Shown piece after piece: positions 1,739 through 3,578 of a stretch of 9,357 nucleotides of DNA. Position 1 is the first letter of the stretch. The number at the start of each line of letters is the position of its first letter. The DNA is taken from the IMG/VR virus record IMGVR_UViG_2537562195_000004; one strand, given 5' to 3'. The position numbers and the translations under genes were made by a program. The notes beneath the pieces are model-generated. The model was not told where the DNA came from, did no database searches, and saw nothing but the letters and a program-made list of their open reading frames with translations. Origin of the DNA: a virus. Its lineage: Duplodnaviria; Heunggongvirae; Uroviricota; Caudoviricetes.

Positions 1739-1945
1739 ATGGAAGCAATCAAAAAAGTCATCTTTCGCCAGGAAGTAAAAAAACTTATCCACATTAAGGC
1801 AGACAGCACGCTGCAAAGCATGATCAACGCCGGAGAATTCCCGCAGGGTTTTCGTGTCGGTTTGCGCCGTCGCGGATGGTATGAGGAAGACGTAATCGCA
1901 TGGATGAAAGAACGAGAACAAGAAGCGCGCGGAACGACCGCTTAA
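1739..1945 (+). CDS. alpA: AlpA-family phage regulatory protein (Vis/excisionase-like helix-turn-helix)
   Basis: 68 aa; pattern ..L..MI.AGEFP.G...G.R.RGW.E.DV..WM is typical of AlpA/Vis proteins next to P4-type integrases. GAGG RBS at 1726-1729. Confidence 0.85.
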   Translation: MEAIKKVIFRQEVKKLIHIKADSTLQSMINAGEFPQGFRVGLRRRGWYEEDVIAWMKEREQEARGTTA

Positions 1946-2066
1946 CATATATAGGGCAAATGATGAACATAAAAAAAGCGGCCCCGAAATGGAGCCACCT
2001 TTCTGAACAATTAACCCGCTGCGCCGTATGTGTCAACAATCATAAGCTTGGGCATGATAACCGCGA

Positions 2067-2270
2067 TCAGGCTGGTGGGCAATTATCTTTCTTGTTGGGG
2101 CCGTATTGTGCTGCCATTTTCATCCGTTCAGAACGTGAATATTTTTTTAGAAACTCATCAAGGACAAAAGCGCATGGTGCGAATCTTTCTGATTCATGCT
2201 CGAGCGCCATATTTTCGTGCTCTCTGTTCGTTTTTTGCGATGGTGTATCGGTTGATTCTTTATTGGTCAT
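2067..2270 (-). CDS. Hypothetical small protein, 'MTN' paralogue C (second gene of RHH cassette 1)
   Basis: 67 aa. Paralogous to 2721-2948: both start MTN + S/T/Q-rich N-terminus and share C-terminal motif F.L(D/E)(E/D)F(L/V).KY(S/P)R. Start preceded by conserved ACAGG. Family unknown. Confidence 0.45.
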   Translation of the reverse strand: MTNKESTDTPSQKTNREHENMALEHESERFAPCAFVLDEFLKKYSRSERMKMAAQYGPNKKDNCPPA

Positions 2271-2278
2271 TGTGTGTA

Positions 2279-2322
2279 CCTGTAAAGCAATGCGCCGTAG
2301 TACCTCACGCCACGGCGCTGAT
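2279..2322. repeat. 44-bp conserved palindromic intergenic element, copy 1
   Basis: cctgtaaagcaatGCGCCGTagtacctcacgccACGGCGCtgat; 43/44 identical to 2957-3000. 7-bp inverted repeat GCGCCGT (2292-2298) / ACGGCGC (2312-2318) with 13-nt loop. The single difference (2309) is in the loop. Confidence 0.8.
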
Positions 2323-2327
2323 GTTTT

Positions 2328-2501
2328 TTATCCTTTGGGTTCAATACCGCGTTGCTGTAATTCTTTTCGGAGTACTCGCTTGATCCAGGTGGCTAAAGAA
2401 GTGTCACCGTCTGCTTTCGCTGCCTCTTCAAGTTGTGCTCTGAATTCTTCTGGTAGCCGCATTTGGTATGGAGGCGATCGCTTTTCCAATGGTGTTGACA
2501 T
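2328..2501 (-). CDS. Ribbon-helix-helix (Arc/Mnt/MetJ-type) DNA-binding protein; not in the supplied ORF track
   Basis: Hand translation of the minus strand: MSTPLEKRSPPYQMRLPEEFRAQLEEAAKADGDTSLATWIKRVLRKELQQRGIEPKG (57 aa, stop at 2328-2330). Fits the Arc/Mnt beta-strand/helix/helix pattern (P.x.hRhP.E.....A...G.S.N..I...L). AGGG RBS; start abuts palindromic operators. Confidence 0.7.
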   Translation of the reverse strand: MSTPLEKRSPPYQMRLPEEFRAQLEEAAKADGDTSLATWIKRVLRKELQQRGIEPKG

Positions 2502-2543
2502 GGTAATTACCCTTAATTACTATAGTTACATGGTAATTACCAT
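2495..2543 (+). promoter_or_regulatory. Divergent promoter/operator region I: sigma70-like promoter overlaid by two GGTAATTACC palindromes
   Basis: -35 TTGACA (2495-2500), 17-bp spacer, -10 TACTAT (2518-2523). Perfect palindromes GGTAATTACC at 2502-2511 and 2532-2541 (second extends to ATGGTAATTACCAT, 2530-2543); centres 30 bp apart. A possible minus-strand -10 TATAGT for the RHH gene lies in the same region. Confidence 0.5.
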
Positions 2544-2568
2544 TGTACTTACCGTTATACAAAAAACA

Positions 2569-2680
2569 ACGCCCCGCAGTGGTGGCTCACATATGGGGCG
2601 TCTAACCAAACCATTAATTGAGGTAACGATTATGGCTATAAAAGAGCATAGCTTACTCTTTATACACACACAAACGCCCC
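2569..2680 (+). repeat. Leader module copy 1 (orphan): hairpin, RBS, ATG and ~16 codons homologous to the Icd-like gene leader
   Basis: Hairpin cgcccc (2570-2575) / ggggcg (2595-2600), then tctaaccaa, GAGG, ATG at 2632 encoding MAIKEHSLLFIHTQTP (compare MVAVNHIPHLVHTQTA at 3378). Similarity then ends. On the minus strand the hairpin is followed by TTGTTTTTT, so it is terminator-like for minus-strand transcription. Confidence 0.6.
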
Positions 2681-2681
2681 G

Positions 2682-2701
2682 GAAACGGAATAATCCGTTT
2701 C
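2682..2701 (-). other. Perfect 8-bp hairpin just 3' of the upstream MTN gene (putative RNA 3'-end structure)
   Basis: GAAACGGA-ataa-TCCGTTTC, 20 nt downstream of the stop of the 2721-2948 minus-strand ORF. Confidence 0.4.
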
Positions 2702-2720
2702 ATGGTTCCGTCTTGTGCAC

Positions 2721-2948
2721 TCATCCTGGCGGTCGGTTTTTGCCGGATTTAAGCCGCCGTGGGTATTTATCGACAAAATCTTCAAGGGCAAATTTTTCTG
2801 GTGGCACTAAGCGCGGCGCTGGTGGTGGTATTTTTGTTCTGGTTAGTTCTTCCTCAAGTCTGGCGCAGGCTTCTGACTGCCTTTGCCGGATGATTTCATC
2901 ATCTTGCGTTTGCGTGTCTTGTATTGGTGATAGTGTGTTGTTGGTCAT
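2721..2948 (-). CDS. Hypothetical small protein, 'MTN' paralogue B (second gene of RHH cassette 2)
   Basis: 75 aa, paralogous to 2067-2270. Preceded by conserved ACAGGG and the 44-bp element. Family unknown. Confidence 0.45.
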   Translation of the reverse strand: MTNNTLSPIQDTQTQDDEIIRQRQSEACARLEEELTRTKIPPPAPRLVPPEKFALEDFVDKYPRRLKSGKNRPPG

Positions 2949-2956
2949 GATACTGC

Positions 2957-3000
2957 CCTGTAAAGCAATGCGCCGTAGTACCTCACACCACGGCGCTGAT
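2957..3000. repeat. 44-bp conserved palindromic intergenic element, copy 2
   Basis: 43/44 identical to 2279-2322. Same position in a 57-bp spacer between an RHH gene stop and an MTN gene start. Confidence 0.8.
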
Positions 3001-3005
3001 AGTGA

Positions 3006-3185
3006 TTATTCTGATTCTTTGGCCTTGCGACGCTGGCGGCGTTTGATTTCGCCGCGCATGGCTGCGTTTATAAACTGCCCCGTGCTTTCACCTTCTTCTT
3101 TCACGTTCTCCATGCCTTCAATAATTTCATGGGCAATACGTGCAGTTACAGATTGTGATTTTGCATTCTTTGGCCCCGTTGCCAT
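3006..3185 (-). CDS. Small RHH-like DNA-binding protein (putative repressor of the Icd-like/rep operon promoter)
   Basis: Preferred start is the ATG at 3185 (MATGPKNAKSQSVTARIAHEIIEGMENVKEEGESTGQFINAAMRGEIKRRQRRKAKESE), preceded by GAGGGG at 6-nt spacing; the track start at 3224 lacks an RBS and would place operator copy O1 in coding sequence. Pattern VTARIAHEII....GES.GQFINAAM resembles Arc/Mnt. Fold assignment is by eye. Confidence 0.5.
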   Translation of the reverse strand: MATGPKNAKSQSVTARIAHEIIEGMENVKEEGESTGQFINAAMRGEIKRRQRRKAKESE

Positions 3186-3206
3186 GTTTAACCCCTCATG
3201 TTTTTG

Positions 3207-3287
3207 GTGTAAGACAATATACACGAAAAAAAAATATTTTGAAGGGTTGACGTGTAAGACACCGTTATTTTACATTGTGTCTTACAC
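3207..3287 (+). promoter_or_regulatory. Divergent promoter/operator region II: three copies of GTGTAAGACA(C) around a + strand promoter
   Basis: GTGTAAGACA at 3207-3216, GTGTAAGACAC at 3252-3262, inverted GTGTCTTACAC at 3277-3287 (the last two form an 11-bp perfect inverted repeat with 14-bp spacer). -35 TTGACG (3247-3252), 17-18 bp spacer, -10 TTACAT/TACATT (3270-3276). Same architecture as region I with different operator sequence. Confidence 0.5.
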
Positions 3288-3318
3288 CTTGTTGATGCAA
3301 GGTACAGAAAAGACGAAA

Positions 3319-3431
3319 CCCCGCAGTGCTGGAACACATACGGGGCTTCTAACCAACAACGTAAACGAGGAGCCGTTATGGTTGCCGTAAATCATATACC
3401 ACACCTTGTACACACACAAACTGCCTTTGTG
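3319..3431 (+). repeat. Leader module copy 2 (functional copy, upstream of and overlapping the Icd-like gene start)
   Basis: Hairpin ccccg (3319-3323) / cgggg (3341-3345), tctaaccaa, GAGGAG RBS, ATG at 3378. 33/39 identical to copy 1 over the hairpin core by manual alignment. On the minus strand the hairpin is followed by a U-rich stretch. Confidence 0.6.
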
Positions 3432-3578
3432 TGGCGTTTTCTGGCACTGAGTGCCGGAGAATCTCAAATCATCCACGTAACCGCCTGGACGGAACGCGAA
3501 GCGCGTAGCCGTTGCCCGTCCGGTTGTGTTGCTGTATTCGCTGCCCGTATTCGTCAGGGGGAAACCTATGCACAATAA
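3378..3578 (+). CDS. Small protein, probably Icd-like (host cell division inhibitor-like, as in P1 icd / P4 kil region)
   Basis: 66 aa; pattern F.WRF.A......II.V.A.TEREAR...P.G.V.VFAARI matches my recollection of Icd-like proteins annotated in P4-like prophages. Strong RBS. Family assignment from memory, not a search. Confidence 0.5.
   Translation: MVAVNHIPHLVHTQTAFVWRFLALSAGESQIIHVTAWTEREARSRCPSGCVAVFAARIRQGETYAQ

Follow-up and report, generated by a model that had tools for sequence, protein, structure and literature searches.

The window analysed here is a stretch of 9,357 nucleotides of a tailed virus (IMG/VR virus record IMGVR_UViG_2537562195_000004) that carries two copies of a 44-base element, termed D1: copy A at positions 2279–2322 and copy B at positions 2957–3000. 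Each copy is situated in the spacer between a gene for a ribbon-helix-helix (RHH) repressor and a small gene termed MTN, both read from the minus strand. D1 is a minus-strand stem-loop with a ribosome-binding site (RBS) that constitutes the leader of the MTN gene family. Confined to Escherichia phage satellites, it marks a recombination joint between repressor and MTN genes, and it lies within an antisense open reading frame (ORF) that is kept open and in phase. Its role is put forward more tentatively, with slightly less than even confidence: D1 may act in cis as an intercistronic stem-loop plus RBS on the minus-strand message and thereby set MTN output relative to that of the repressor. A full-text search of the literature yielded no description of the D1 sequence.

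The two copies are identical at 43 of 44 positions and the sole difference is in the loop (G at 2309, A at 2987). The pair forms the longest direct repeat of the region, positions 2260–2334 versus 2938–3012, with 81% identity over 75 nt. Both RHH-MTN spacers are exactly 57 nt (2271–2327 and 2949–3005), and each contains the 7-bp inverted repeat GCGCCGT/ACGGCGC, at 2292–2298/2312–2318 and at 2970–2976/2990–2996. The original prediction had described the 43/44 identity, the loop difference, the 57-bp spacers, the inverted repeat and the ACAGG end of the element; repeat finding and direct reading reproduce all of these. It had also stated that the flanking genes are strongly diverged, and indeed BLASTP aligns neither the RHH proteins of the two cassettes with each other nor their MTN proteins. 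By eye, the diverged cassette proteins have one short motif in common, F-x-L-[ED]-x-F-x-K-Y.

On the minus strand the layout of D1 is as follows: the RHH stop codon, 9 nt, a GC-rich stem of 9–11 bp, a 13-nt U-rich single strand, CAGG, 8 nt and the ATG of the MTN gene. Copy A begins with AUCA and has a 9-bp stem (GCGCCGUGG/CUACGGCGC, with one G-U pair) formed by positions 2310–2318 with 2292–2300, a 9-nt loop CGUGAGGUA (2301–2309) and the tail AUUGCUUUACAGG. In copy B the stem of positions 2988–2996 with 2970–2978 extends to 11 bp with a UGAGG loop, and the tail ends in CAGG (2957–2960). The loop is purine-rich and resembles a Shine-Dalgarno (SD) sequence (UGAGG), and the 3′ end, ACAGG, includes the weak SD sequence CAGG. 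A covariance model built from D1 variants matches only these two sites in the window, 2278–2321 (71.4 bits) and 2956–2999 (72.7 bits), with E-values of 1e-19 and 6e-20, respectively. The next match scores 8 bits; thus chance is excluded.

With a 75-nt query, D1 was detected in 1498 of 5426 complete E. coli genomes, with a median of one copy and a maximum of seven, nearly all copies being chromosomal. There was no match among 50,697 phage records, and there were 8 among plasmid records. An exact scan with a degenerate core over one genome each of 185,579 species matched Escherichia coli and Shigella flexneri; about 30 further single matches, scattered over unrelated taxa, are presumed to be chance. 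Every annotated example shows the same gene order, i.e. int, alpA, MTN and RHH on the opposite strand, then an Icd-like gene and replication genes. D1 is present upstream in all 26 of the 26 MTN relatives retrieved by protein search, and YlcI/YnfO genes that have no downstream MTN gene also have no D1; many of these display an unrelated hairpin or a true terminator instead. This constant gene context, together with the restricted distribution, shows D1 to be specific to this cassette type. A sequence search had been proposed earlier to distinguish a dispersed repeat from a cassette-restricted one, and it points to the latter: a repetitive extragenic palindromic (REP) or bacterial interspersed mosaic element (BIME) is ruled out by the low copy number, the constant RHH-MTN satellite context and the confinement to Escherichia and Shigella.

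At several loci (L164, L174, L190 and similar), a YlcI/YnfO gene is followed at once (TAG CCCACCAGC...) by sequence resembling the 3′ region of MTN. Judged by their sequence, such loci appear to have lost MTN together with D1 by a precise deletion; if so, the satellite would be able to do without MTN.

The strand on which D1 acts is indicated by its variation. The variant set comprises 62 distinct spacer variants with 43 distinct cores, all from one genus and closely related; across the 62 the position of D1 is invariant and there are no indels. When the stem is taken as 10 pairs, 92.1% of the cells are paired on the minus strand versus 80.3% on the plus strand. Most stem changes go to G-U, with 49 G-U cells counted on the minus strand and 9 on the plus. 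Of the 43 variants, 40 have the more stable hairpin on the minus strand (−14.9 versus −11.0 kcal/mol, Wilcoxon 4e-8). One lineage (UUGCCGUAG/CUCCGGUAA) shows compensatory double changes, G-C to U-A and C-G to U-A. The one-strand wobble pattern and the stability bias support an RNA stem on the strand of the RHH-MTN mRNA and argue against a symmetric DNA site. The intercistronic RNA hairpin that had been among the suggested roles is therefore in keeping with the substitution pattern. Since a G-U pair on the minus strand is an A-C mismatch on the other strand, a plus-strand transcript and its ribosomes meet a weaker structure.

The same observations bear on the protein-binding palindrome of the original prediction, that is, on D1 as a double-stranded operator or recombinase site for a protein common to the satellites, e.g. 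AlpA or an integrase/excisionase. The perfect 7-bp inverted repeat, and its conservation across satellites with different RHH alleles, would be expected of such a site. However, the substitutions retain RNA pairing on one strand and break the DNA symmetry, the 13 nt that separate the arms are conserved despite their asymmetry, and the conserved block extends asymmetrically to the SD sequence. In addition, each RHH gene has separate and different candidate operators in its own promoter region, and D1 is tied to the presence of MTN, not to that of alpA or int. A role as a DNA site is accordingly regarded as very unlikely, and this part of the original prediction is not upheld.

Several observations count against a purely structural hairpin, or against reading too much into its conservation. 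Covariation is thin, with changes on both sides in only 2 of the 10 pairs, both from a single lineage, so that the structure and covariation analysis suggested earlier supports the minus-strand stem but adds little by covariation proper. A common variant (CUCCGG) disrupts pair 10–24. Loop conservation equals stem conservation, which a plain structural hairpin does not need and which gives a hint of a sequence-specific partner. As all of the sequences come from one genus, the conservation may largely reflect recent ancestry.

D1 also lies at a joint between modules. When the RHH classes (Arc-like and two YlcI types) are compared with the MTN classes, almost all combinations occur, i.e. they assort freely. 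The variable columns of D1 track the downstream gene, and the ratio of mutual information to entropy is 1.0 for the tail columns. Because these columns follow MTN, D1 is part of the MTN module, as its leader. In rare recombinants (L215, L191) the breakpoint is directly past the hairpin. These alignments place the crossover zone for repressor swapping at the left edge of D1, insofar as it can be read from sequence comparison. Nothing was found that points to D1 as a site-specific recombination site. The recombination site proposed earlier thus holds as a homologous joint for RHH/MTN reshuffling and not as a site-specific one. Of the two causes of conservation first considered, strong constraint is supported; recent gene conversion is not needed, because about 1500 E. 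coli genomes retain the D1 sequence and the base that differs between the two copies is a common polymorphism.

A joint of this kind could be conserved with no regulatory role beyond the RBS. D1 would then be a young, E. coli-confined sequence, homogenised as a crossover zone, with the constraint of the antisense ORF added. Its restriction to Escherichia and Shigella, the free assortment of RHH and MTN classes, the breakpoints past the hairpin in the two recombinants, and the open, in-phase antisense frame all fit this explanation, as does the fairly conserved sequence at the adjoining RHH 3′ end and MTN 5′ end (column identity 0.6–0.75). On the other hand, the adjoining MTN sequences have diverged past BLASTP detection while D1 is 43/44 identical, and neither the strand-asymmetric wobble nor the stability bias is expected of a neutral joint. 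A GC stem of 9–11 bp at a fixed distance to both stop and start codons is also unlikely to be accidental. A purely neutral joint is, in sum, rather unlikely.

The antisense frame is itself a conspicuous feature of the region. A long plus-strand ORF (frame open over 1900–3390, probable start ATG at 1960) runs from 15 nt past the alpA stop codon, antisense through both cassettes and both D1 copies, to position 3390, 12 nt inside the Icd-like gene. This had been overlooked in the original prediction: the spacer cannot count as non-coding on both strands, lying as it does inside an ORF that is selectively kept open. Of 104 distinct loci, 95% show no plus-frame stop over the full 644 nt sampled, regardless of the alleles on the opposite strand. 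Plus-frame stops per RHH and MTN ORF are 0 and 0.02, against an expectation of about 1.2 from codon-order shuffles. Histidine or glutamine codons after a codon ending in T number 0 of 287 and 1 of 258, and Tyr-type codons never follow a pyrimidine; although shared phylogeny means that these counts are not independent, the avoidance is close to absolute. In the minus frame the codon-position diversity is in the order position 2 < position 1 < position 3. This order shows that amino acid constraint acts on the minus-strand proteins; the plus-strand ORF is only kept free of stops. The third codon positions of the plus ORF coincide with those of the four minus-strand genes, which accounts for the single frame shared by these genes and for the spacer length of 57 = 19 × 3 nt. 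In 61 of 103 loci the plus ORF continues in frame into the Icd-like gene and terminates at the stop codon of that gene; in 33 loci, including this window, it terminates at the icd leader or start, and here, at 3390, its frame differs from that of icd.

That D1 owes its conservation to coding on the plus strand (CKAMRRSTSHHGAD), as part of this long "Icd-like/ash/Bro" ORF, is scarcely credible. In favour of it, 95% of loci have no stop in this frame across D1, the frame is often shared with the Icd-like gene, and the Prokaryotic Genome Annotation Pipeline (PGAP) places plus-strand pseudogenes over D1. In other genomes it labels pieces of the ORF as Icd-like, ash or BRO-N pseudogenes, often missing the minus-strand genes. 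However, the ORF has no Pfam or NCBIfam match, and its codon-position diversity is reversed, with position 1 below position 2. Most D1 variants are non-synonymous in it (K>I, S>N, T>S, S>L, H>R, G>S, R>H), and the remainder of the ORF is not conserved between the cassettes.

The ORF resembles eta/kil of phage P4 (Forti et al. 1999, as summarised in PMC10111431). According to that summary, kil is nested in eta, and translation of eta prevents termination, so that late transcripts read through the immunity region. In both cases a long ORF starts by an alpA/vis homologue and crosses the immunity region free of stops. Unlike in P4, the strand opposite to the ORF here carries protein-repressor cassettes, and the ORF stops 12 nt into icd, in a frame other than that of icd. 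By analogy, the plus-strand ORF of the window may play the role of eta as a translated spacer; the comparison concerns the context of D1 and not D1 itself. No description of repressor cassettes antisense inside an eta-like ORF was found in the literature.

For the function of D1, one of the closest comparisons is with operons of the papBA and malEFG type, in which intercistronic stem-loops or leaky attenuators set differential expression. D1 is like these in being orientation-specific and in its layout: a stable GC-rich hairpin comes directly past the stop codon of the upstream gene, and a U-rich single strand leads from it to the next RBS. It is unlike them in that its sequence, including the loop, is conserved far beyond need, and in that it is antisense within an ORF that is kept open. 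In the proposed mechanism the stem-loop would uncouple MTN output from repressor output. It might do so as a leaky attenuator, as a 3′-end-forming hairpin that stabilises the RHH message, or both, and the open U-rich tail with its weak SD sequence would set a low, fixed rate of MTN translation. Action in one orientation would let late plus-strand transcription and translation pass. If there is attenuation or processing at D1, RNA 3′ ends would be expected at ...GCGCAUUGCUUU, or 5′ ends just past the stem.

The degree of termination to be expected is limited. A terminator test found the GC-rich hairpin, with its 9–11-bp stem of −14.9 to −17.8 kcal/mol, and a simple consensus scan flagged copy B alone as terminator-like. 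However, the two copies (tail AUUGCUUUAC) reach −27 and −37 in a d'Aubenton-Carafa-type score, compared with +37 for the terminator at the end of the operon, and some variants have a U-poor tail (ACAGGGUUAC). The negative discriminant and the U-poor variants make strong termination unlikely and weigh against the attenuator component of the proposed mechanism; D1 is at most a leaky attenuator. A plus-strand terminator was rejected, since the T-run is found only in copy A and the score is negative by hand calculation.

The conserved loop brings in a different possibility, that an antisense RNA recognises D1 in the manner of the P1 c4 and P4 CI immunity RNAs, with GUGAGG as the loop box and UUUACAGG as a single-stranded SD box. 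The partner would be a trans-acting RNA from a helper or a co-resident element, or else a complementary, alpA-driven transcript of the eta-like ORF (loop ACCUCAC, with a YUNR U-turn). Upon satellite induction, such pairing would prevent translation of MTN or cause the RHH-MTN message to decay. The architecture, and the place in the immunity ("Bro") zone of E. coli satellites, recall the C4/CI targets, P4 seqA and seqC (Rfam c4-a1b1 RF03163, isrK RF01394). By eye, these targets (loop CGUGAGAA, then UUCACAGG at the SD sequence) and D1 alike present CGUGAG... in a hairpin loop and, past it, ...ACAGG as a single-stranded box at the SD sequence of the next gene. The exposed segment of P4 CI pairs with both D1 boxes at −28.4 kcal/mol, which is equalled by 2–3% of shuffles, and 2 of 13 D1-bearing satellites have Rfam C4 and isrK matches adjoining the cassette. 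The entire cassette is antisense to the plus-strand ORF, which the argument for this possibility takes to be transcribed and translated.

There is also evidence on the other side. P4 CI pairs more strongly with its own targets (−35 and −39) than with D1, and for the commonest D1 variant the duplex is not significant (p = 0.25), so P4 CI itself was rejected as the regulator. No Rfam family matches in the window; C4, c4-a1b1, isrK and sar have no match at E ≤ 1, nor at E ≤ 10 on positions 2230–2660 (431 nt), while the same tool finds C4, isrK and c4-a1b1 in P4 at 44–61 bits. Conversely, the D1 covariance model does not match P4 seqA or seqC. Among 20 distinct C4 variants (from 210 related loci), whose a′ and b′ loops are highly variable, none has loops complementary to the D1 boxes GUGAGGUA and UUUACAGG, and a cognate C4 RNA in related satellites was rejected on this count. 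There is no site complementary to D1 elsewhere in the window, and a gapped-pattern scan of viral contigs for a C4-like RNA (CCTGTAAA..CCTCAC) gave chance matches only, in unrelated metagenomes. The functional strand of D1 is opposite to that of kil/icd, unlike in the C4/CI targets. No plus-strand promoter adjoins D1, and the loop types of D1 assort freely with the types of D2, a second conserved element treated below. A cis-antisense partner would be complementary to any sequence, which leaves the sequence conservation unexplained. The likeness to C4 targets thus stays a lead, and membership in that family fails. Overall, an antisense recognition site is judged unlikely.

P22 offers a related precedent. 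In the arc-ant part of its immI region an Arc-type RHH repressor gene is followed by a short spacer and then by a gene whose RBS lies in a regulatory RNA region, with control from the opposite strand by sar. The D1 locus has the same arrangement of an RHH gene, a short spacer and a second gene with its RBS in an RNA region. It differs in that no promoter-like site or terminator flanks D1 on the plus strand (the T-run being in copy A only) and the Rfam sar model is unmatched. Moreover, sar is a 69-nt small RNA, while the RNA opposite to D1 would be long and translated.

A specific form of the antisense idea is improbable but has consequences that can be stated. D1 could be the nucleation (kissing) site of a cis-antisense switch, in which a helper turns on alpA, the loop ACCUCAC (YUNR) of the eta-like transcript pairs with D1, and the repressor operon is silenced. 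If true, this would be the protein-repressor counterpart of the P4 CI/seqA-seqC RNA immunity circuit. As D1 is nearly identical in all such satellites, an induced satellite or cassette could then cross-silence others in the same cell.

A number of other candidate functions were tried and rejected. A lambdoid nut site does not fit: there is no boxA (CGCUCUUA-like) in the 20 nt upstream, and the stem of 9–11 bp with a UGAGG or 9-nt loop differs from boxB, which has a 5-bp stem and a GNRA-like pentaloop. Autoregulation of the N/boxB type by an arginine-rich MTN N-terminus is not indicated, since MTN-A and MTN-B have no RKRRRRK stretch and D1 is unchanged. A selenocysteine insertion sequence (SECIS) or readthrough to an RHH-MTN fusion was considered because the two genes are in the same frame with a stop-free spacer; the RHH stop codon is mostly TAA, with TAG or TGA in few cases, and the shared frame is accounted for by the phase-locking to the plus-strand ORF. 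Every MTN gene begins with ATGA, and an upstream mini-ORF (UUG...UGA overlapping the AUGA start) was rejected because several variants have UCG, UUA or CAG for UUG, or an early stop. The GGA core of a CsrA site is present in some variants only, and a plus-strand frameshift site (AAA G plus hairpin) is not kept in the TGC ATA variants. Loop-loop pairing of D1 with D2 would reach 5 bp at most, between types that do not track each other. AlpA of P. aeruginosa, with its ABE site (GGGACG), is a different, Q-like protein and has no relevance here.

Returning to D1 as a minus-strand stem-loop and RBS leader, its conservation is attributed, in part on the observations above and in part by inference, to three things: the element is young and restricted to Escherichia; several constraints are stacked on it (the RNA stem, the RBS, the open in-phase antisense ORF and the absence of indels); and it is a homologous RHH/MTN joint.

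The window is 100% identical to an island of E. coli strain 4 (NZ_CP045209.1) adjoining tRNA-Pro/yejM, and this island is a capsid-forming phage satellite of the phage-inducible chromosomal island (PICI) type. Its plus-strand genes include int (1–1242), alpA (1739–1945), the Icd-like (P4 kil-like) gene that opens the rightward replication operon (3378–3578; NCBIfam NF033153, E-value 6e-18, and PGAP), a DUF4222 gene, RepA helicase, PerC and a fusion of ClpP protease with major capsid protein. A PADLOC search for defence systems gave no match. Between alpA and the Icd-like gene, the minus strand carries the two tandem cassettes, each consisting of an RHH gene, the 57-nt spacer and an MTN gene. 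RHH-A (2328–2501) is an Arc-like repressor gene (E-values: Pfam Arc 0.008, PHROG Arc-like repressor 5e-7, NCBIfam YlcI/YnfO 5e-4), and RHH-B (3006–3185) belongs to the YlcI/YnfO family (NCBIfam NF041551, 5e-18, and PGAP). MTN-A (2067–2270) matches phrog_21027 (3e-12) and shows the minus-frame codon-position order given above. MTN-B (2721–2948), with copy B as its leader, is supported by clusters of homologues (17, all from E. coli and all hypothetical, i.e. ORFans) and by a predicted helix. A structural model of MTN shows one long helix and a short helix (pLDDT 75, pTM 0.35) and is uninformative.

Each RHH gene faces a divergent promoter region that contains its own repeated boxes. For RHH-A, the candidate operators are two copies of the palindrome ATGGTAATTACCAT within 2500–2543 (4 matches versus 0.04 expected). 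For RHH-B, a perfect GTGTAAGACA box occurs three times within 3207–3287, around divergent promoter-like sites (3 matches versus 0.39 expected). From this arrangement we infer that the RHH proteins are local repressors. The cassette-specific boxes are probably the operators of two different RHH repressors, that is, of two immunity specificities in one island. The RHH-MTN transcription unit is ended on the minus strand by a canonical intrinsic terminator, a hairpin with U7 at 1971–1999 (discriminant score +37). This terminator lies within the first codons of the plus-strand ORF, 26 nt past the alpA stop codon; it shows a weak, sub-threshold match to Rfam Atu_C8, taken as chance.

Cassette A is followed by only a remnant of the start of an Icd-like gene, at 2632–2720 on the plus strand (MAIKEHSLLFIHTQT... 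versus MVAVNHIPHLVHTQT... at 3378). This remnant indicates that the cassettes arose by tandem duplication or recombination of a unit composed of D2 and the icd start, followed by MTN, D1, RHH and promoter. Tandem cassettes are also found in satellites L072, L077, L079, L120, L166 and L226. Upstream of alpA, at 1633–1672 and 1687–1736, a partly palindromic sequence of 20 nt occurs twice in direct orientation (AAAAACGGTGTATACCGTTT / AAAAACGGTGAGTACTGTTT), and the same region has an inverted repeat, TGATTTACCGTATT/AATGAGGTAAATCA. The repeats are candidate regulatory sites of the alpA promoter.

D2 is located on the plus strand in the leader of the Icd-like gene, at 2556–2609 and 3303–3356, and is 80% identical between the cassettes. 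It consists of an imperfect hairpin and an invariant UCUAACCA tail. Among 25 variants, five pairs change on both sides, and covariation is 0.191 versus 0.057 in shuffles (0 of 500). D2 has no Rfam match, and its minus strand resembles a hairpin with a U-run (z −3.2 and −4.9). It is a candidate for an uncharacterised structured RNA at the place that C4/isrK occupies in P4. A conserved TTTGTGTGTGTAYAA box (minus-strand reading) is found just within the Icd-like coding start, at 2660–2676 and 3405–3420, and is probably explained by conserved HTQT codons. Its minus strand also resembles an extended −10 sequence, which could drive an RNA antisense to the icd RBS that ends at D2.

In two satellites (L023:2958–3621 and L077:10704–10889), an RHH-D1-MTN cassette is accompanied by isrK and one or two C4 genes, each before another Icd-like gene. 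The presence of C4/isrK alongside RHH-D1-MTN shows that protein-repressor and RNA-immunity modules are combined in tandem.

The cassettes occupy the least understood zone of the PICI/P4-like satellites of Gram-negative bacteria, from alpA to the replication genes, where silence versus induction is decided. A protein-repressor cassette with an invariant RNA leader is present in roughly one in four complete E. coli genomes, and this provides a handle on satellite silencing and on swaps of repressor specificity. Real genes that are antisense inside an ORF selected only for its openness provide a test case for overlapping genes. If the logic of P4 eta applies, the ORF would be a translated "anti-Rho" spacer, with a bearing on the evolution of overlapping genes and on their annotation.

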